A DNA stretch of 53,231 bases, from the IMG/VR virus record IMGVR_UViG_3300028835_001764, one strand, 5' to 3'. The stretch's first letter is position 1, and every line of letters starts with the position of its first letter. The notes below the pieces were generated by a model. The model was not told where the DNA came from and searched no databases. It saw nothing but the letters and a program-made list of their open reading frames with translations. The translations under genes were made by a program, and so were the position numbers. This stretch comes from a virus. Positions 2,675 to 37,378 of this stretch are shown here, one piece after another.

Positions 2675-3427
2675 TTATAGTCTCCACTGCCCGTCATCGT
2701 CAACACACGCCATTCTGTGCTCGGCTGCAATGTGCGTGCAATAGCCTGAGTCAATCTCAACTAAAGTACAGGCGCGGTCGATTTGACGGCAGACTCGAAG
2801 CGTAGTTCCTGTACCGCCAAACGGATCAAGGATATGCTCACCCGGAGCCGTGGTGAGTTTGATGCACCGTTCAACAAGTCCTTCATTAAGTTGCGTGGGA
2901 TGCCATTTCCGCCGCTGCTTGGAGTTGCCAGTAACACGGGTAAAGTCGAAAACATCACCCGGTACGCGACCCCGGGGGTCCGCCCGCTTGTCGCCATGCT
3001 CCTGACGCCATGATTGAATACGAATTGCATCGGGGTACAGCGGACAATCGCACCATCTGATACGAATCAGCGGTCGGTGATTGTTGCCAAGGTCACTATG
3101 ATTGTGCTGACCGAAGCTAAACACCTGAACACACGGCTTGACATCAATGTTTTTGCCGTAGTAGCCTTCAAGTTCAGTGACGATGCGACCGACCTGAGAC
3201 CACCACTTGGCGTTGTAGCTGAACCACACACAACGAGAGTGTTTGACAAACAGCCAAAGCCACTTGCGGAGCAAGTCAATGTAATCGCTCCCTGGTAGCT
3301 TATCGTTGTAGTCGTTGTACTTCAAACCGAGATTGTCTGGAGGATCAGCGAAAATTGTATCCCACCGCCGGGTATTATTTTTGAGCCAAACAACACAGTT
3401 ATCACAGTAGAGTTCGTATCGGTTCAT
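2675..3427 (-). CDS. DNA methyltransferase (N6-adenine/N4-cytosine, N6_N4_Mtase family)
   Basis: Motifs FADPPDN (a DPPY-like motif IV) and DPFGGTGTT (the AdoMet-binding motif I) are present. The likely start is MNRYELYCDNC at 3427, which overlaps the stop of the HNH gene. Confidence 0.8.
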   Translation of the reverse strand: MNRYELYCDNCVVWLKNNTRRWDTIFADPPDNLGLKYNDYNDKLPGSDYIDLLRKWLWLFVKHSRCVWFSYNAKWWSQVGRIVTELEGYYGKNIDVKPCVQVFSFGQHNHSDLGNNHRPLIRIRWCDCPLYPDAIRIQSWRQEHGDKRADPRGRVPGDVFDFTRVTGNSKQRRKWHPTQLNEGLVERCIKLTTAPGEHILDPFGGTGTTLRVCRQIDRACTLVEIDSGYCTHIAAEHRMACVDDDGQWRL

Positions 3428-3987
3428 TTCAATCCCAATTCTTGTGCTCGTTTTGAGCAATCTGGACACTGGCCGGTTTTCCAAAGTGGGCAAAGTTTGG
3501 TCTTGTCGTATTGGTACTCGCCAAAGTATTTGATCTCGGCTTTACGGCGAACAGCAATGGCCCTGTCCTTATTCATGTCATCATAGTAGCCGAGGTGTAT
3601 CCATTTTCCGTTGACTTTGATGTAAGCCCGCCATTTACCGCAATCTTTTTTCCAATTTACACCTGTAACTCCTGACGTGTTGTTTGATTTGAGTCCTTCA
3701 TTGGCCTTCTGTTCACCCGAAGTAGCAAGTCGAAGATTCACTTTTCGATTGTCACAGCCACATGTGTCGATGTGATCGACTTGTTTTCCACGCTTCCACT
3801 GTTTGTGGTGCTGTATAATGGCAACGTGCATCAGAATTAGTGGTCGTTTTGGTTTAGAATTATCATGCCGCTCAGCGTAGCCAGTCTTCCCTCTACGAGC
3901 ATAATTCCATTTCCACTTCGACAGCCACTTGAAATCTTCATTGTCAACAATGGCTACTCGACCTTGAGTCAATTCGATCAGTTTCAT
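3424..3987 (-). CDS. HNH endonuclease with AP2 DNA-binding domain (homing-endonuclease-like), copy 1
   Basis: HVAII...VDHIDTCGCDNRKVNLRLAT matches the HNH_3 family. SGVTGVNWKKDCGKWRAYIKVNGKWIHLGYY matches an AP2 domain. A paralog lies at 25376..25933. Confidence 0.8.
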   Translation of the reverse strand: MKLIELTQGRVAIVDNEDFKWLSKWKWNYARRGKTGYAERHDNSKPKRPLILMHVAIIQHHKQWKRGKQVDHIDTCGCDNRKVNLRLATSGEQKANEGLKSNNTSGVTGVNWKKDCGKWRAYIKVNGKWIHLGYYDDMNKDRAIAVRRKAEIKYFGEYQYDKTKLCPLWKTGQCPDCSKRAQELGLK

Positions 3988-4186: not shown

Positions 4187-4429
4187 TTAGAGCCTCAAAC
4201 AGGCGGTGTGATATTCGTAATCGTCGAGTGCCTTTTTAACTTCCGAAGGGCAGTTGGTATGCAGCAGCATTTTTCCTGCCAACTCGAAAGCGGCCTGAAA
4301 AAGTGTTTTACCGGCACCGTGCATCCTTGGTCGATATTTGGAAGTCACAATCGCATAATTCGGTTTCACGGTACACACAATACCGTCATCGACTTTTGCC
4401 AAAGCATCTAGTAGTTCAGCAGTTCGCAT
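4187..4429 (-). CDS. hypothetical protein
   Basis: The ORF is 4187..4525. The plausible start is an internal Met just downstream of the methylase stop. Confidence 0.3.
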   Translation of the reverse strand: MRTAELLDALAKVDDGIVCTVKPNYAIVTSKYRPRMHGAGKTLFQAAFELAGKMLLHTNCPSEVKKALDDYEYHTACLRL

Positions 4430-5141
4430 TGATTCTCTCGTTGGCAAGTCGGCAGTATTTGGCATTGAGTTCAATGCCGATGAATTGTCTGCCCGTATTG
4501 AGACAGGCGATTGCGGTTGTACCACTACCGATACAATTATCGAGCACGACTGCGCCTTCGTCAGTGAACGATCGAATCAGAAACTCGAATAGTTCAACCG
4601 GCTTCTGGTTGGGGTGGACTTTGATTCCGCTGTCATTATTGACAACTGAGATGTCAATGACAGAGGTAGGATGCCGATCCGTTTGGCCGCCGCCGCTAAT
4701 ACGTTTCGTCTGCCCGTAGTTGGTCCCGTCGCTCGTATGCTTTGTGAATGAATGAACTGGCTTATGACCACGTGATTTCTGCGGGTGATAAACCGGCAGG
4801 CGGCGATAGAAAACAAGAATGATTTCGTGTTGCCGGAGAGGCATCCTGTTGGCATTGAGAAACCCTGTTGACTTGTTCTTCCGCCAAATCAAGTCGTAGC
4901 GAAACATCGCGGGATTCGACATAACCAACTGTGCAGCAAAAGGCTGTGTAGCGGTCAGCACAATAGCCGCATTTCGTTTTGTTACACGCCGATACTCGTC
5001 CCACAGCCGATCAAATGGGATCACCCGATCCCATGCGTTCTGTGTGACGCCGTAGGGCAGGTCAGCCAATACCATATCGACGCTCTCATCCTGGAGCGTC
5101 GGCATGATGTCAAGACAGTCACCGTAAAGAATCTGGTTCAC
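4416..5141 (-). CDS. DNA N6-adenine methyltransferase (Dam-like, phage type)
   Basis: Motifs ADLPYG (DPPY), HPNQKPVEL and DNCIGSGTT are present. Confidence 0.85.
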   Translation of the reverse strand: MNQILYGDCLDIMPTLQDESVDMVLADLPYGVTQNAWDRVIPFDRLWDEYRRVTKRNAAIVLTATQPFAAQLVMSNPAMFRYDLIWRKNKSTGFLNANRMPLRQHEIILVFYRRLPVYHPQKSRGHKPVHSFTKHTSDGTNYGQTKRISGGGQTDRHPTSVIDISVVNNDSGIKVHPNQKPVELFEFLIRSFTDEGAVVLDNCIGSGTTAIACLNTGRQFIGIELNAKYCRLANERINANC

Positions 5142-30130: not shown

Positions 30131-31198
30131 TCAGACTTCTATTCCTGTGAAATTCGGTTTAGATAATATGTTATCCCCATCCCAATCATAAACACCAACA
30201 TCACCATGCGGGCTGATCAACACAAAGCTACAAATATTTTCAGCCCAGGTACCGGTATTGTAAACCTGTAACGGCAATGTTTGACGATACAATTGACCCG
30301 CGCGGTGCGTGTGTCCTGAAACAAGAACATCGTATTTGTCCAAATACTCGATCAGACGGGAGTTCATAACTTTCGCCCGATTAGGTTTACGAAGAATCCA
30401 GCGAACAAAACTCAATATCCGCTCTATGCGGCCCAGCGATCTGTTTTCAATCGTCTGGTATTTGTTCACAAGTGGCCCGCCGTTGCGATCCTCTCTGAGA
30501 CCGGTGTAGATGGCTGAAATTCGGCCTAGACCCGGTGTGTCATTGGCGCAGTAGCGATCTACCTCGTGGCCGTGAATGAAGTGAAATTGCTTACCGCCGA
30601 TAGTTTCAGTGTGACTTGTCACCATGTTTCTGAAAAATGGGTGTGTTAATTTCAAGTGTCCACGAAAGTTCACTAAATCAGCATCATGGTTACCCAAGAT
30701 GTAAATAGCCCCCATCGAAGCGAGTCGATTCAAAAGCCAAGGGCGGGCTGTAAGAACTCGACTCACATTGCTTTGCCACAGTTCAAAGAGATCGCCCGCA
30801 ATGATAAGGCGGCCATTCTGTCTCTCAACGTAATTAAGAAAAGACGTGAAATCTTGCATCCGACGCCCTTCGGACATGAAAACAAAATTGTCTCTTACAC
30901 CTCGATCACCGAGATGCAGATCGGATACAACAAAAATCGGCTGGGAAATCTTTTGCTTAGATCGCACCGGCTGCGGTTGAACCTGATGGACAGGTTCAGT
31001 AAACTGATCGTCGAGCGACTCAAAAGACTCAACAGACTCAACAGACTCGATAGGTGGGGCAATTGAAATTTCTGGCATGGTAGGTGTGACCTCTGGGTAA
31101 AACCATTCGTTAGCACAACACTGAAGCCGATACAAAACATCATTAGGATCAGTATCTTCTACAACGTTTTTGAACAAAATATTAACTTGGATGTCCAT
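30131..31198 (-). CDS. calcineurin-like metallophosphoesterase with repeat-containing N-terminal extension
   Basis: VVSDLHLGD, AGDLFELW, GNHD and GHTHR motifs are present. The N-terminal ESVESVESFESL is encoded by 9-bp repeats. Confidence 0.7.
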   Translation of the reverse strand: MDIQVNILFKNVVEDTDPNDVLYRLQCCANEWFYPEVTPTMPEISIAPPIESVESVESFESLDDQFTEPVHQVQPQPVRSKQKISQPIFVVSDLHLGDRGVRDNFVFMSEGRRMQDFTSFLNYVERQNGRLIIAGDLFELWQSNVSRVLTARPWLLNRLASMGAIYILGNHDADLVNFRGHLKLTHPFFRNMVTSHTETIGGKQFHFIHGHEVDRYCANDTPGLGRISAIYTGLREDRNGGPLVNKYQTIENRSLGRIERILSFVRWILRKPNRAKVMNSRLIEYLDKYDVLVSGHTHRAGQLYRQTLPLQVYNTGTWAENICSFVLISPHGDVGVYDWDGDNILSKPNFTGIEV

Positions 31199-31882: not shown

Positions 31883-32424
31883 ATTTCTCCGTTGAAAAGG
31901 TTCTGGGCTTCGCCGATTTTGCCGTCGTACAGCATGTGACTAACTCCGCCACTTTCAAGAATCTCGATGCCAAGGTCCATCTCTTCTCGCCACCGTTCTG
32001 GCGTTCTGTCAAATGCCTGCAAATGTCCAACTACCAACTTGATGCCGGAGAGAACAATAGCACGAGCACAATCTGGGCAACAGGTCCACGAATAGACCAT
32101 TGTTCGACCGTTCAACGAAATGCCTAACAAAGCCGCTTTGTAAATGGCCGCCCGCTCCGCGTGCTCAGTGATCTTATACTTGCGAGGTCGTTCATGGTTT
32201 TTCGGATCATCAGCCATAGCCGGATCGATAAACGCATTGGCACCACTGACAAGAATCTCGCCATCATCATTGATCACCACCGCGCCAATCTTGGTGCTGG
32301 TATCGGTACTCTCTTTGAAAGCCACCTCGTAAGCGGCGAGTATCAAGTCTCGAAAAACCGGATTCCTTGTTTCAGTCACCGCAACTCCCTCCCCGCAGTT
32401 CACAAACATCGACTGATTCCTCAA
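31870..32424 (-). CDS. dCMP/cytidine deaminase
   Basis: HAERAAI (H[AC]E zinc motif) and CCPDCARAI (PCxxC) are present. Confidence 0.8.
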   Translation of the reverse strand: MRNQSMFVNCGEGVAVTETRNPVFRDLILAAYEVAFKESTDTSTKIGAVVINDDGEILVSGANAFIDPAMADDPKNHERPRKYKITEHAERAAIYKAALLGISLNGRTMVYSWTCCPDCARAIVLSGIKLVVGHLQAFDRTPERWREEMDLGIEILESGGVSHMLYDGKIGEAQNLFNGEIWYP

Positions 32425-34027
32425 TCAATTCCGCACCCTCGTGAGCAACCGCTTCTTCATAAGGAACTGGTGTCAGTGGTTGCCCGGAGCGGCTACCATC
32501 CGGATAGCATGTGATACCTCGAAGCTGAGGTAGGTATCGCATAAGCATGGAACCAAATGGTCGTATCGTGCGTTGATTATTCAACTCACTACCGTAGGCG
32601 GGTAGATTGATCGTACTGCTGATGCAGTGATCAACATAACCTTGCACCCAAACCTGGAAAGCCACTCGCTTCTCGACATCTTGTGCAAGCGTATAAGCGT
32701 CGTCAATCTTACTCGGATCAACTCCGCTCTCGATCAAACGTCTGGCACACGGATCGACAACATACTGATAGAAGTATCGTTCGCCTTTCAGGTATCGTCT
32801 CTTGTAGGCAACACAAAAAATTGGTTCAATGGCGCTGGTAGTTTCAGCTATAATCGACGTAGTTCCGTTAGGCGCAATTGCCCGAGTCTTTTTCGGACGA
32901 CTCAGCTTCCACTCATCAGCCCACTTGTTAGCTGACCGACCGGATTTCGCATACGCCGCCAACCATTCTCCCAACTCTTCATCCGGAGCATAAGGCCGCC
33001 CACGTTTAAGAAGCCATTCTGTGACTCCCATCAAGCCAAGACCGAGCCGACGATTCTTACTGCGAACCTTGTCTACATCACTATAAGGAACATCTGAGTA
33101 AACTGAACCCGCCGTCAGAAACGCCATCGCAAGATCAATGAGAATTTTGAATTCATCGAGACTCTCGACTCGCGCTAAGTTAATTGAGCCCAAGTTGCAA
33201 ATATCATCTGTGTCTCGACTAGACAATTCTCCGCAGGCGTTTCTTAACGTTTCATTGGTATTCTTTCCAATGTCAACACTAAAGCCCGGCTCACCAGTCC
33301 GAAGCATCTGTTCAATGACTGCCCAATAGACGCTGTGTGCCAACGCATGATGCTCATGTTCATCATCCCCATAGGCTTCAAAGAACAGATCATCCAATTG
33401 CACACTGATGTTAGTGAAATCCAAAGTTGCAGGGAAACTGAAGTCTTTAGCTTTCAAACTGCAAATTTCTTCGGACCAATTCTTTATCCGAATGAATCGG
33501 TGAACATCCGGATGATTCCACTTCAAACCGGCCCATATAGCGCTACGTCGTGTACTACCCTGCATAATCCCTCGGCCACATTCATTCAGTATTTGCATAA
33601 GGGAAAGTGGTCCAGATGCTAAGCCACCTGTCTTGCGAATCGGTGAACCTTCACATCGAATATCGGAGTAGTCAACTCCAATCCCTGCGCCCGACATCAG
33701 AGCCATGCTGGCTTTCATCAGCAACTCCGACCAGCCTTCTCGACTATCGTGAACCTTAAGCATAAGGCAGTTTTGCACCTGGTGATACTGACGCCCGGAC
33801 GCATAGAGGTAACGCCCCGCCGGAATAAACTTTCGCTCAGTAATAACACGCCGAATATCCTGGGCAAATTTCTGCCGCATATCAATACCAACAGCCCGCA
33901 TAACATTCTTTGTCACACGATCGGCAATCTCAGGCCATGTCTCTTTTCGATCTTCAACATCATGGGCATAAGTTCGATCCATGATATTCTGCGCAAAGAC
34001 CGACATTGATTCCGTTGCATTTTCCAC
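32372..34027 (-). CDS. ribonucleotide reductase catalytic subunit (likely class II/NrdJ-like; no NrdB seen)
   Basis: NACGELSS...CNLGSINL matches the RNR active-site loop. Glycine-rich SGAGIGVDYS is present. The size is 551 aa and no beta subunit is in the window. Confidence 0.7.
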   Translation of the reverse strand: MENATESMSVFAQNIMDRTYAHDVEDRKETWPEIADRVTKNVMRAVGIDMRQKFAQDIRRVITERKFIPAGRYLYASGRQYHQVQNCLMLKVHDSREGWSELLMKASMALMSGAGIGVDYSDIRCEGSPIRKTGGLASGPLSLMQILNECGRGIMQGSTRRSAIWAGLKWNHPDVHRFIRIKNWSEEICSLKAKDFSFPATLDFTNISVQLDDLFFEAYGDDEHEHHALAHSVYWAVIEQMLRTGEPGFSVDIGKNTNETLRNACGELSSRDTDDICNLGSINLARVESLDEFKILIDLAMAFLTAGSVYSDVPYSDVDKVRSKNRRLGLGLMGVTEWLLKRGRPYAPDEELGEWLAAYAKSGRSANKWADEWKLSRPKKTRAIAPNGTTSIIAETTSAIEPIFCVAYKRRYLKGERYFYQYVVDPCARRLIESGVDPSKIDDAYTLAQDVEKRVAFQVWVQGYVDHCISSTINLPAYGSELNNQRTIRPFGSMLMRYLPQLRGITCYPDGSRSGQPLTPVPYEEAVAHEGAELIEESVDVCELRGGSCGD

Positions 34028-34527: not shown

Positions 34528-34600
34528 AAGCCGACGGTAGGAATCGAACCCACAACAAGCGCATTACAGATGCGCGGCTCTACCAATTGAGCTACACCGG
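34528..34600 (-). tRNA. tRNA, probable Thr (anticodon UGU; loop TCTGTAA with unusual C33)
   Basis: The manual cloverleaf is GCCGGTG-TA-GCTC..GAGC-C-GCGCA/TCTGTAA/TGCGC-TTGTT-GTGGG/TTCGATT/CCTAC-CGTCGGC-T. CCA is not encoded. Confidence 0.6.
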
Positions 34601-34603
34601 CAA

Positions 34604-34677
34604 GTGGGCAATGCGGGACTCGAACCTGCGACATCTGCCTTGTAAGGGCAGCGCTCTAACCAACTGAGCTAATTGCC
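34604..34677 (-). tRNA. tRNA-Val (anticodon UAC)
   Basis: GGGCAAT...CTGCC/CTTACAA/GGCAG...GCAGG/TTCGAGT/CCCGC-ATTGCCC-A is a clean cloverleaf. Confidence 0.75.
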
Positions 34678-34681
34678 CTAA

Positions 34682-34757
34682 GTAGCGGGCATGGGATTTG
34701 AACCCACGACCTCCTGGTTATGAGCCAGGCGAGCTAAACCAGACTGCTCTAACCCGC
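34682..34757 (-). tRNA. tRNA with CAU anticodon (Met or Ile2); U1·U72 mismatch at the top of the acceptor stem
   Basis: The fold is TGCGGGT-TA-GAGC(11-nt D loop)GCTC-G-CCTGG/CTCATAA/CCAGG-AGGTC-GTGGG/TTCAAAT/CCCAT-GCCCGCT-A. Confidence 0.65.
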
Positions 34758-35108
34758 ATCAAACTTCAAATACGAAGTAACTCTCGATTTCTCAAGCCAT
34801 CGGGGCACCTTTCGGAACACACCAGCCAAAGGATCATAGTATTTGTTCTTGTACCAAACAACCCAATGCGATCCGCCACTTGGATGTGTAAACTTCAATA
34901 TTGCCGAACCCTCTCCCGGAAATCCACGTGTCAACTTGTCACCGCATGTGACTCCCGTCTGCCGCAATGCTGCGACCACATGCTTTGTGCGAGTCTGCCC
35001 TCTGCGACAAAAAATCATCAACGACTTTTCAAGCGTAAATCCGCAGATTGTTGCAACACATGCCTGACCACATTGGCTACTTCCAACTGGCTGTTTCACA
35101 AGTTTCAT
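34749..35108 (-). CDS. C39-like (papain-fold) cysteine peptidase domain protein
   Basis: QCGQACVATICG is the catalytic Cys motif. A downstream GSHWVVW...YYDP (His) is present. The ORF overlaps the tRNA 5' end by 9 nt. Confidence 0.5.
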   Translation of the reverse strand: MKLVKQPVGSSQCGQACVATICGFTLEKSLMIFCRRGQTRTKHVVAALRQTGVTCGDKLTRGFPGEGSAILKFTHPSGGSHWVVWYKNKYYDPLAGVFRKVPRWLEKSRVTSYLKFDAG

Positions 35109-36140: not shown

Positions 36141-36767
36141 TTATAGTGAAAAGACTCCTACAAAGGCTTCGGCATTCGGAGTCCAATACTCGTTTAGCCG
36201 GGGAATACTAAGTTTCTCGATGCGCAAACCAGTGAGTCCTTTAGACAACAATTCCGGTGTAAGCACGTGCGGATGGCATTTGTCGGCTGGAATGTTAATC
36301 CATTCAAAGATACGAAGCCGACCGCACCTATTGAGATGATTTTTTGCTTCGACAAGAACCTTGTTTGGATCGGCAACATGTTGAAGCACATTACATATCC
36401 AAACCTCATCGGCCGGCCACACATCAACCGTCAATAAATCCTCGCCCGCACAACGTACAAAGTCGATGCCATACTGACAATACCGGCGAAGTACAGCTTT
36501 TGGCCAGGCGATAGGATCAACAACAGTGAGACGCGAGGCGTGGTGACACCGAAGTGTCATTGACACAGGACCCCCGCCTATATCAATCACGGACTTACCT
36601 TGCATGTCAAACTCACCATTGTCGCCGTAATCAGCAATCAATTGCATTTCACGACTGTACATTTCTTGTTTGACAAACTCCTGCCATGTCGATAAGTTGA
36701 GACAGTCACCCCAGAATTTAGCTTCGTGTTTCTGGGCGTCGATCCAAATCTGAGAATCAGTCGTCAT
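36141..36767 (-). CDS. SAM-dependent methyltransferase
   Basis: Motif I VIDIGGGPV is present. The likely start is MTTDSQIWIDAQ at 36767. The upstream T/S/I-rich 68 codons of the long ORF are probably not translated. Confidence 0.6.
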   Translation of the reverse strand: MTTDSQIWIDAQKHEAKFWGDCLNLSTWQEFVKQEMYSREMQLIADYGDNGEFDMQGKSVIDIGGGPVSMTLRCHHASRLTVVDPIAWPKAVLRRYCQYGIDFVRCAGEDLLTVDVWPADEVWICNVLQHVADPNKVLVEAKNHLNRCGRLRIFEWINIPADKCHPHVLTPELLSKGLTGLRIEKLSIPRLNEYWTPNAEAFVGVFSL

Positions 36768-36996
36768 CGTCCTCGTCGTCCTCGTGATTGTAATCAAAGT
36801 CGTCCTCGTCGAGATCATCGAGATCATCGAAATCATCATCGAAATCATCATCGAAATCGCCGTCAAAATCGCCGTCAAAATCGTCGTCAAAATCGTCGTC
36901 GTCGTCGTCGATTTTGTCGTCGAAGTCGTCGTCGTGAAAGTCGTCAACAAAGTCGTTGTCGAAGTCGTCAAGAGTAGGGTAACTGCTTTCGGGCAT
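36757..36996 (-). CDS. extremely acidic D/F-repeat protein (candidate DNA mimic/anti-restriction)
   Basis: The 79-aa product is MPESSYPTLDDFDNDFVDDFHDDDFDDKIDDDDDDFDDDFDGDFDGDFDDDFDDDFDDLDDLDEDDFDYNHEDDEDDDD. A GGGAG RBS lies 6 nt upstream of the ATG at 36996. It overlaps the downstream methylase start by 11 nt. Confidence 0.45.
   Translation of the reverse strand: MPESSYPTLDDFDNDFVDDFHDDDFDDKIDDDDDDFDDDFDGDFDGDFDDDFDDDFDDLDDLDEDDFDYNHEDDEDDDD
36775..36965. repeat. imperfect 12-bp tandem repeats (GTCGTC/ATCATCGAAATC units) encoding the acidic repeat
   Basis: Seen directly in the sequence: atcgaaatcatc x3, cgccgtcaaaat x2, cgtcgtcaaaat x2 and (gtc)n runs. Confidence 0.8.
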
Positions 36997-37033
36997 TTGT
37001 CTCTCCCTTTCCCTTTGGAACAAGTTAAATCAG

Positions 37034-37378
37034 TTACGGTTGAATGATCGGCGAAGGTGGTTCAGTTGGCGGTGAAGGCGGTTCAGTTGGCGGTGGCTGC
37101 GGCGCGCCTGCCGTAGGCGGTGCCACTCGATGAATACGAGACTTAATCGAGTACCACTGCAACAACATCTTGAAAACATCGTCGGCCGATAGACCCTCAA
37201 AGCAAGCCAATGGAAACTGAAGGCTATTACCTGCAAAGAAATGGACATGGTACTGGACAATAAGACCATTAGGCAAAGTGACCTTAAGAGTTGTATCGAT
37301 CATCGGACTGATGGTCTCTTCCACCTCTTGCATCTGACCATCATACGGCCCACCAAGAAAAAGAATTCGTGACGCCAT
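37034..37378 (-). CDS. hypothetical protein with Pro-rich C-terminal repeat (PPTEPPSP)x2
   Basis: A 24-bp tandem repeat at about 37040-37110 encodes the repeat. Confidence 0.3.
   Translation of the reverse strand: MASRILFLGGPYDGQMQEVEETISPMIDTTLKVTLPNGLIVQYHVHFFAGNSLQFPLACFEGLSADDVFKMLLQWYSIKSRIHRVAPPTAGAPQPPPTEPPSPPTEPPSPIIQP

Follow-up and report, generated by a model that had tools for sequence, protein, structure and literature searches.

A conserved hyper-acidic, aromatic-punctuated microprotein in an uncultured phage lineage, possibly a disordered nucleic acid decoy

Described acidic proteins and how the locus compares

The textbook nucleic acid mimics of phages, among them Ocr, ArdA, Gam, Arn, and several anti-CRISPRs, are rigid folds. 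Ocr (T7 gp0.3), for example, adopts a compact helical fold that imitates bent B-DNA. The subject of this article is a gene that at first sight belongs in their company. It lies in a 53,231-nucleotide stretch of viral DNA (IMG/VR record IMGVR_UViG_3300028835_001764), all of which is referred to here as the window, and it encodes a protein of 79 amino acids (aa) dominated by aspartate and phenylalanine. An initial annotation took the product for a candidate Ocr- or ArdA-like DNA mimic adjoining an anti-restriction methylase. The protein does share with Ocr and ArdA the character of a small acidic phage or plasmid protein without an enzymatic domain. Ocr, however, is 29% aspartate plus glutamate (D/E), compared with 61% for the window protein, which is predicted to be disordered and has no sequence match to it. 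The reading put forward here, tentatively and with somewhat less than even confidence, is that the protein is a disordered, polyanionic nucleic acid decoy resembling single-stranded DNA (ssDNA), and not a folded mimic of the Ocr type. The idea of a DNA mimic would then survive as a flexible decoy of the ssDNA or protein-tail kind, but without the Ocr-like fold and without the link to a methylase.

Which described proteins come closest? One is Gp44 of Bacillus phage SPO1, in which residues 56 to 122 are 57% D/E, lack basic residues, are disordered, and contain internal repeats; this acidic domain has been proposed to be a flexible ssDNA mimic and binds beta/beta' of the host RNA polymerase, an enzyme that itself binds nucleic acid (PMC8208478). 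The window protein likewise is a phage-encoded stretch of more than 50% D/E with virtually no basic residues, and disorder is predicted for it. The two differ in architecture. The acidic stretch of Gp44 is one domain of a 27-kDa protein; an N-terminal domain that is folded and binds DNA precedes it, and a C-terminal region follows. Here the acidic array is in essence the whole protein, its aromatic punctuation is much more regular, and no sequence homology between the two was detected.

A second comparison is with the acidic tails of replication proteins. The tails of T7 gp2.5 (EESWDEDDEESEEADEDGDF) and gp4 (STDWSNDTDF), as read from the T7 genome, are both acidic and aromatic. Many genome-maintenance proteins dock on the DDDIPF tip of Escherichia coli SSB (PMC5872125, PMC7145534). 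For the gp2.5 tail, PMC10359462 (citing Marintcheva 2008) reports competition for the ssDNA-binding site. Like the window protein with its predicted disorder, these are disordered acidic-aromatic stretches, albeit short ones, found in the context of a replication module, and they bind basic or hydrophobic sites on replication proteins. They are, however, appended to folded proteins and rely on an aromatic residue at the C terminus, whereas the protein described here is free-standing, contains approximately 10 to 13 internal motifs, and ends in an acidic, non-aromatic C terminus. The internal D(2-5)-F/W/Y motifs resemble the SSB C terminus (SSB-Ct) and the gp2.5 tail in composition only, and no OB-fold or SSB family match was found for the acidic protein or the scanned neighbours.

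The third comparison concerns translation. In MgtL, translation aborts within the first six residues, and N termini rich in D/E and proline (DE/P-rich) abort translation in E. coli (bioRxiv 10.1101/2021.02.02.429294). MgtL-type leaders are D/E/P-rich right after the initiating methionine and continue into acidic runs that destabilise ribosomes, and the N termini of the family described below (MPESS.., MPEND.., MPDPND.., MPADDP..) match that composition. Those leaders are short, whereas the proteins here are 35 to 105 aa long, are rich in bulky residues that suppress abortion, and have no fixed downstream gene.

The acidic gene and its relatives

The gene and its signals occupy the following positions of the window.

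36757..36996, minus strand: coding sequence of the 79-aa hyper-acidic D/F microprotein, from translation of the open reading frame (ORF) and 21 syntenic homologues; runs MPESSYPTLDDFDNDF...DEDDFDYNHEDDEDDDD
37003..37007, minus strand: Shine-Dalgarno sequence GGGAG, 6 nucleotides (nt) 5' of the acidic ATG, within AAAGGGAGAGACAAATG
36757..36767, minus strand: stop/start overlap ATGACGACTGA, 11 nt, in which the acidic TGA overlaps the ATG of a methyltransferase gene
36823..36969: decayed 12-bp tandem repeat, GAY GAY GAY TTY on the coding strand, from Tandem Repeats Finder

The ATG is at 36996 and the TGA at 36759-36757, both on the minus strand, and the gene caller used on the source contig, an uncultured phage sequence assembled from a metagenome, likewise predicts a 79-aa gene here. 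The full protein sequence is MPESSYPTLDDFDNDFVDDFHDDDFDDKIDDDDDDFDDDFDGDFDGDFDDDFDDDFDDLDDLDEDDFDYNHEDDEDDDD. It contains 44 D and 4 E (60.8%), 11 F, 2 Y, a single K, and no R, for a net charge of -47. Its core reads DDDF DDDF DGDF DGDF DDDF DDDF DDL DDL, with a hydrophobic residue at every third or fourth position, and the chain ends in ...HEDDEDDDD. The initial annotation had thus described the product correctly, as approximately 60% Asp/Glu with D/F repeats and with a GGGAG ribosome-binding site of its own. Measured against all 341 window ORFs of at least 50 aa in six frames, the D+E fraction of the acidic ORF (0.57 to 0.61) compares with a mean of 0.074 +/- 0.053, and the second-ranked ORF reaches 0.22; the composition is far beyond chance. 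Codon choice is unusual as well. Among Asp codons the share of GAC is 0.64 in this ORF versus 0.38 in 13 long window genes, a reversal that may reflect translational selection or else avoidance of GATGA(Y)-derived ATG and TGA in the other frames.

The 12-bp repeat noted initially is also present: Tandem Repeats Finder gives 11.9 copies of a 12-bp period, with 77% match, at 36827-36969, and at 36823-36858 it finds ATCATCGAAATC in three perfect copies. Its copy number had been expected to vary between isolates, and so it does. In six strains whose methyltransferase DNA is 99.2 to 100% identical, the acidic ORFs measure 174 to 207 nt, and the indels that separate them (3, 6, 9, 12, and 18 nt) are without exception multiples of 3. 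The repeat beneath the acidic core is the source of this in-frame length variation.

Is the aspartate-rich frame the one that is translated? In the close subclade, three frames are open: the D frame, the +1 T/S/M frame (that of the methyltransferase), and a frame on the antisense strand. All three owe this to the (GAY)n/TTY composition, so counting stop codons has no value there, and the frame was settled by distant relatives together with conservation of the Shine-Dalgarno sequence and ATG and conservation of residue class. Relatives were collected through the methyltransferase, the back-translated DDDFDDDFDDDFD pattern, the SbcD-like exonuclease (51 loci), and an exact-protein contig look-up. 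They include 21 distinct acidic homologues of 35 to 105 aa in related uncultured phage contigs, and frames and Shine-Dalgarno sequences were tabulated for 20 of the acidic-family relatives. Only the D/E frame is open in all 20, each with a GGAG-type Shine-Dalgarno sequence 5 to 9 nt before its ATG, and the T/S frame is interrupted by stops in 11. Conservation of the D-rich frame in relatives, a check proposed along with the initial annotation, therefore came out in that frame's favour.

What is conserved is the character of the protein and not its DNA. The nucleotide sequence differs between relatives, with both D and E codons and differing spacings, while the acidic character, the Shine-Dalgarno sequence, the ATG, and a loose N-terminal motif, M-P-[DE]...P...(Q)PEEWDD, are kept. 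D and E replace one another (GAY versus GAR), and F, W, Y, and L are likewise exchanged among themselves (TTY, TGG, TAY, and CTN); it is only in the D/E frame, read as protein, that these exchanges are conservative. Among the tabulated relatives, D/E content ranges from 43 to 80%, with 0 to 5 K+R per protein. The closest relative, L199, whose methyltransferase is 85% identical, has the C-terminal segment FDDLDEDDFDYNHEDD in common with the window protein. The gene is co-directional with its operon, in a source genome with almost all of its genes on the minus strand.

These data bear directly on whether the ORF could have no function and simply reflect the expansion of a triplet repeat, or whether the DNA itself is the element, for instance a set of iterons that happens to be open. 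The DNA is indeed a tandem repeat, and three of six frames are open from repeat composition alone, but the conservation is at the protein level and not at the DNA level, the strain indels are all in frame, and the locus has neither a GC-skew switch nor an Rfam match, and the idea deserves next to no credence. An iteron or origin was also considered in its own right and rejected, the nucleotide repeats being unconserved and the skew unchanged. A promoter and terminator scan near the gene gave signal no higher than shuffle expectation. The ORF is a genuine, conserved, translated-looking hyper-acidic gene.

To what family does it belong? hmmscan against Pfam-A, which includes the Ocr (PF08684) and ArdA (PF07275) models, gave the acidic protein no Ocr or ArdA match and no family at an E value of 0.01 or below, and Pfam, PHROGs, and NCBIfam together held no credible family for it. 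Eight relatives in short form had no PHROGs match; the only PHROG match among relatives was a weak one, "ATPase", to the long form of L068. A homology search with the acidic protein against a collection of 5.8 billion proteins produced 2853 word candidates and none at an E value of 1e-3 or below, a composition of this kind defeating HMMER-based search, and exact-sequence cluster look-ups with four family members found them absent from the same collection. Nor is there a close cultured phage: the best exonuclease match is 25% identical, and megablast matched a tRNA only. The strict DDDFDDDFDDDFD pattern occurs eight times in the whole of IMG/VR, and since three of these matches are relatives of this phage, the trait is concentrated in its lineage. 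By these sequence criteria the ORF founds an undescribed family of hyper-acidic, aromatic-punctuated microproteins, predicted to be disordered, that is fast-evolving and accessory in an uncultured phage lineage. Homology tools miss such ORFs and no PHROG or Pfam family represents them, so phage and bacterial genomes probably encode more hyper-acidic microproteins than their annotations show.

Predicted disorder, aromatic residues, and candidate functions

The AlphaFold structure suggested as a check at the outset shows no fold. Run on the single sequence without an alignment, AlphaFold2 returned a pLDDT of 53.9, a pTM of 0.13, and no secondary structure. The mean normalised hydropathy of 0.30, against a charge-hydropathy (Uversky) boundary of 0.63, puts the protein deep in the disordered region, and its relatives fall there too. 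The protein is therefore predicted to be fully disordered and not a rigid fold shaped like double-stranded DNA (dsDNA). Fully extended, the chain would carry approximately one negative charge per 5.6 to 5.9 A, close to the charge spacing of single-stranded nucleic acid.

How does the original proposal fare in this light? It would have a folded dsDNA mimic like Ocr or ArdA block type I restriction or BREX, in partnership with an adjacent anti-restriction methylase. The very high negative charge, the small size, the phage origin, and the position of an accessory gene in a variable region all suit it. It is nevertheless a very improbable account: neither Pfam model matches, the best BLASTP E value against T7 Ocr is 3, the D/E content is far from that of Ocr and comes without predicted secondary structure, and the supposed methylase partner does not live up to its name. 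Two sets of features are relevant to this last point.

36141..36767, minus strand: 208-aa class I S-adenosylmethionine (SAM)-dependent methyltransferase, Methyltransf_11/UbiG-like, from Pfam and the source label
2675-3493 and 4416-5141, minus strand: N6/N4 DNA methylases (PF01555, N6_N4_Mtase), matched at 5.6e-27 and 1.5e-29

The METHYLTRANSFERASE link is that of the acidic ORF to the downstream 208-aa protein. This neighbour matches only Methyltransf_11/12/25 in Pfam (Methyltransf_11 at 1.2e-5), gives a faint CmoB match in NCBIfam, and is labelled "UbiG-like" by the source (JGI). It has no sequence match in the PDB, and its translation contains no [DNS]PP[YFW] or PCQ/ENV motif. All of this places it as a generic class I SAM enzyme outside the DNA methylase families. 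The genuine DNA methylases, likely the ones that protect the phage's own DNA, are more than 31 kb from the acidic ORF. Translational coupling was another element of the initial annotation. The 11-nt overlap ATGACGACTGA is real and possibly couples the two ORFs, and overlaps of 11 to 17 nt are conserved in L001, L011-L018, and L199. Only the window's subclade, however, has the methyltransferase gene after the acidic one; in the rest of the lineage its place is taken by the phosphoesterase, by genes without an assigned function, or by the helicase. Conversely, methyltransferase homologues at 40 to 60% identity occur in cyanophage ACG-2014f and other phage contexts, after SEC-C or DUF2061 genes and without an acidic ORF. 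The acidic gene is thus independent of the methyltransferase, and the argument from an acidic mimic beside a methylase fails because the neighbour is generic, the linkage is confined to one subclade, and the real DNA methylases are elsewhere.

If the protein has no fold, what has selection preserved? The acidic cores of the 21 proteins contain 382 non-acidic residues, among them F 91, L 46, W 44, Y 38, P 31, N 21, G 18, A 17, V 14, S 14, I 10, M 3, and K+R 12. From GAY, a codon for F or W is two or three nucleotide changes away, and still F+W outnumber N, H, G, A, and V, the one-step neighbours of GAY, by 135 to 76. Leu is strongly favoured over Ile and Met, although these are just as bulky. 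A composition so far from random points to selection for the sticker residues F, W, Y, and L in the acidic cores. The spacing of hydrophobic residues is mostly 4 in the window protein and 3 to 13 in relatives, and because it varies in this way no fixed helical face is conserved. The conserved property is simply that of acidic runs broken up by aromatic or Leu residues.

Bulky residues matter to one quite improbable alternative, in which the ORF is a cis-acting translational sensor like MgtL: the hyper-acidic nascent chain, which contains proline, destabilises the ribosome, the downstream gene follows the Mg2+ or ribosome state, and the peptide itself is functionless. The N termini MPE.., MPDP.., MPADDP.., and MPEYPELPEE do resemble DE/P-rich abortive N termini such as that of MgtL (MEPDPT), and in most of the 21 members the acidic ORF ends within the start of the next gene or right against it. 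The ORFs are nonetheless far beyond leader length, the downstream gene varies, and in 6 of the 21 relatives tRNA genes follow without any coupled ORF. Moreover, enrichment of F, W, Y, and L counteracts abortion, and this enrichment, taken with the GAC bias, is read as selection for the full-length product.

The decoy reading favoured here would work as follows. The acidic protein would be made together with the replication and recombination proteins of the phage. Its carboxylates would occupy the basic, phosphate-binding surface of one or more nucleic acid-binding proteins, most likely those of the host, while the aromatic and Leu side chains, one every 3 to 6 positions, would fill base-stacking or hydrophobic pockets. 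The target could thereby be blocked or redirected through multivalent, "fuzzy" binding that needs no fixed structure, and the repeat would let length and valency change fast by in-frame slippage. The gene's setting, a module of helicase, SbcD-like exonuclease, phosphoesterase, ParB-like, DNA polymerase, and ribonucleotide reductase (RNR) genes, provides the context for such a role. A host-directed role fits better than a core replisome role because of the gene's accessory status and the fast evolution of its repeat, and an accessory gene in a variable slot is compatible with host takeover or counter-defence. The binding mode, the target, and either of these benefits are what we infer, and they are put forward conditionally.

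A relative of this reading, which draws on most of the same evidence and is unlikely but to be taken seriously, makes the protein a free-standing array of motifs like the SSB or gp2.5 tail, serving either as a hub for phage replication and repair enzymes or as a decoy for host proteins that dock on the SSB tip. The motifs DDDF, DEDDF, and EEWDDE resemble E. coli SSB-Ct DDDIPF (PMC5872125, PMC7145534) and the T7 gp2.5 and gp4 tails, genes for a helicase, an exonuclease, a phosphoesterase, and DNA polymerase surround the acidic gene, and family scans of the window proteins recognised no SSB. The difficulty lies at the C terminus. Recognition of the SSB tip needs a C-terminal aromatic residue with a free carboxylate, but the C termini of the family are acidic and unconserved (DDDD, DED, DDDDS, YEE, EEEEE, DIDP, QDVP), with no terminal aromatic. 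A core replisome role is also hard to square with a gene that about half of the relatives lack, and across 28 loci no partner was found to co-vary with it.

Could the charge alone be the point? As a polyanionic buffer or chaperone, the protein would bind up divalent cations or polyamines, or accompany a strongly basic protein of the phage until it meets DNA. Consistent with this, it packs 47 net negative charges into 79 residues, the phage encodes an enzyme of the polyamine pathway, AdoMet decarboxylase, and a conserved protein, small and basic, is encoded approximately 2.5 kb upstream (39399-39692). Such a role would leave the conserved aromatic and Leu residues unexplained, however, and the presence of the small basic protein shows no co-variation with that of the acidic gene, for which no co-occurring partner was found. 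The explanation is considered improbable.

Several observations weigh against the decoy reading. (i) No homology to any characterised mimic was found in Pfam, PHROGs, or NCBIfam or by BLASTP against T7 Ocr. (ii) The disorder is predicted from a single sequence. (iii) Bulky residues counteract the ribosome destabilisation caused by acidic nascent chains (bioRxiv 10.1101/2021.02.02.429294), and the aromatic spacing may therefore have a second cause, one compatible with a decoy, namely that it makes a polyacidic chain translatable. (iv) About half of the related phages do without the gene. (v) Small D/F/Y proteins in bacterial chromosomes may point to a more general role for this type of protein.

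Should the decoy reading hold, phages would have here a nucleic acid mimic that stands alone and is disordered throughout, and thus different in design from the textbook phage mimics, which are rigid. The family would also supply a natural series of lengths and valencies for studying how polyanion-plus-aromatic "fuzzy" inhibition acts on DNA- or RNA-binding proteins. It is, besides, a natural test case for a ribosome translating a chain that is 60 to 80% acidic from approximately residue 10 onward.

Similar proteins elsewhere and the genomic surroundings

How widespread are such proteins? The back-translated pattern occurs at 120 places or more in bacterial and archaeal genomes, many of them encoding small (40- to 140-aa) hyper-acidic D/F/Y proteins. 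In Planctomycetes these lie beside a purine-nucleoside-phosphorylase (PNP)-type gene (e.g., L082, L094, L126, and L149), in Treponema near rsfS and a LytR-family gene (L097, L115, and L152), and in Brachyspira near argJ (L103, L120, and L133). Lachnospiraceae have membrane-anchored versions. Acidic tails also occur on larger proteins, including two long Hsp70-like ones in which a D/F tail forms the C terminus, L122 from a Myxococcota metagenome-assembled genome and L095 from an uncultured bacterium. The chromosomal proteins (among L079-L158) have lineage-conserved N-terminal leaders and housekeeping neighbours, and they appear uncharacterised. As a functional lead, those neighbours (PNP-type, ArgJ, RsfS, and LytR) were discarded as uninformative housekeeping genes. 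The chromosomal proteins seem similar to the phage family in composition only, but since such small D/F/Y proteins exist in bacterial chromosomes, the protein type is evidently not phage-specific.

A more ambitious version of the decoy reading draws these strands together. It holds that the proteins are a class not recognised before, free-standing, multivalent acidic-aromatic arrays of at least 10 concatenated units, SSB/gp2.5-tail-like or ssDNA-like; that phages use them to fill up the clefts in which host genome-maintenance or defence proteins bind ssDNA, or the sites where these proteins dock SSB tails; that slippage tunes their valency in an arms race; that the Planctomycetes, Treponema, and Brachyspira proteins are cellular counterparts; and that the aromatic spacing averts ribosome destabilisation. 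This version is considered decidedly unlikely.

One further viral case stands apart. An unrelated viral contig (L026:1217-1642, minus strand) has a 141-aa ORF with a D3F repeat in its N-terminal part and a Cys-rich, zinc-finger-like C-terminal domain, again with no credible PHROGs match. This fusion indicates that an acidic array can be a module of a larger protein.

The window itself is the replication and nucleotide-metabolism region of the phage. Its landmarks around the acidic gene are listed below.

25930-28335: DNA polymerase
30131..31198, minus strand: metallophosphoesterase of 355 aa, conserved, bounding the variable slot on its downstream side
32372-34027: RNR
37034..37378, minus strand: 114-aa gene, function unassigned, the upstream neighbour of the acidic gene; conserved in relatives (LFLGGPxDGQ...), with a Pro-rich C-terminal repeat
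39601..40917, minus strand: SbcD/Mre11-like exonuclease, the conserved upstream anchor of the slot, 2.6 kb upstream
41957-43939: helicase
46441-49335: primase

DNA and RNA ligases, two ParB-like proteins, ThyX, dCMP deaminase, and MazG are encoded as well. A DUF3326 protein (11106-12131, minus strand) gives a strong match (1e-76), and ORFs like AdoMet decarboxylase and NT5C are also present. Taken with ThyX, dCMP deaminase, and MazG, these point to extensive nucleotide or polyamine metabolism and possibly to DNA modification.

Across 51 related contigs the backbone runs helicase, a trypsin-like 318-aa gene, SbcD exonuclease, small variable genes, the acidic ORF, a variable insert, the 355-aa phosphoesterase, ParB-like, a 112-aa gene, and DNA polymerase. 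In most relatives the acidic gene stands directly upstream of the phosphoesterase and the genes that follow it. Of 28 loci with a complete exonuclease-to-phosphoesterase interval, 16 have the acidic gene, which is why it is regarded as accessory in a variable slot. In two further relatives a similar acidic ORF has another position, upstream of a 109-aa gene and a 216-aa-type phosphoesterase (L019) and between a homologue of a 174-aa gene and the helicase (L022).

As mentioned, tRNA genes follow in six relatives (L034, L041, L051, L068, L038, and L067): after the acidic ORF comes non-coding sequence, with at least one tRNA gene. A conserved hairpin segment, ..CCACCATGCGTGG..CTCACCGTGGC..ACGGTGAGAG.., is common to four of the six, at the positions below; the sequence listed for L067 has just the beginning of this segment, and L038 is without the motif. 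The hairpin is possibly a terminator or processing site.

L034:12867-12960: segment after the acidic ORF
L041:10363-10460: the same
L051:13338-13440: the same
L068:2852-2930: the same

The screen for a partner gene, by presence and absence over the 28 related loci, returned no co-varying gene. Its top association (p=5e-5) appears to consist of spurious ORFs, the example ORF overlapping tRNA DNA. A small protein with the signature RTRYWD...HF.VW.QW.G was considered as an alternative occupant of the slot and set aside; it is present in 10 of 16 loci with the acidic gene and 9 of 12 without it, and so bears no relation to it.

Some minor features of the region may be recorded here. A small conserved protein, LMDRLWxxGxRPxxxKGSAGALAATERHLEDMRxLVF, is encoded just upstream of the acidic ORF in several relatives and is absent from the window.

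L001:4380-4760: LMDRLWxxGxRPxxxKGSAGALAATERHLEDMRxLVF protein
L018:2124-2423: the same
L020:5612-6010: the same

In the window, a 21-bp tandem repeat (37049-37095, minus strand; 2.2 copies, 92% match) closes the 114-aa gene, where it encodes PPTEPPSPPTEPPSP, and is a second in-frame coding repeat directly beside the acidic one. Three adjacent tRNA genes (Thr-TGT, Val-TAC, and Met-CAT) lie at 34529-34758 on the minus strand; there is no tRNA-Asp, despite the Asp-rich gene. The sole megablast match among GenBank phages, to Xanthomonas phage Elanor, falls on tRNA-Met. A strong terminator-like hairpin (40963-40992, minus strand; 13 pairs, 10 of them G-C) separates the trypsin-like gene from the SbcD-like exonuclease gene; the transcription unit to which the acidic gene belongs may begin here. 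Farther off, a match to the nematode small RNA family RF01656 of Rfam (21740-21810, minus strand; 38.6 bits against a gathering threshold of 38) is almost certainly due to chance. It falls inside an 881-aa ORF (19200-21845, minus strand) that has no PHROG match and carries Major Vault Protein domains (MVP_shoulder at 6.6e-24 and Vault_3 at 3.4e-10), which are unusual in a phage genome.

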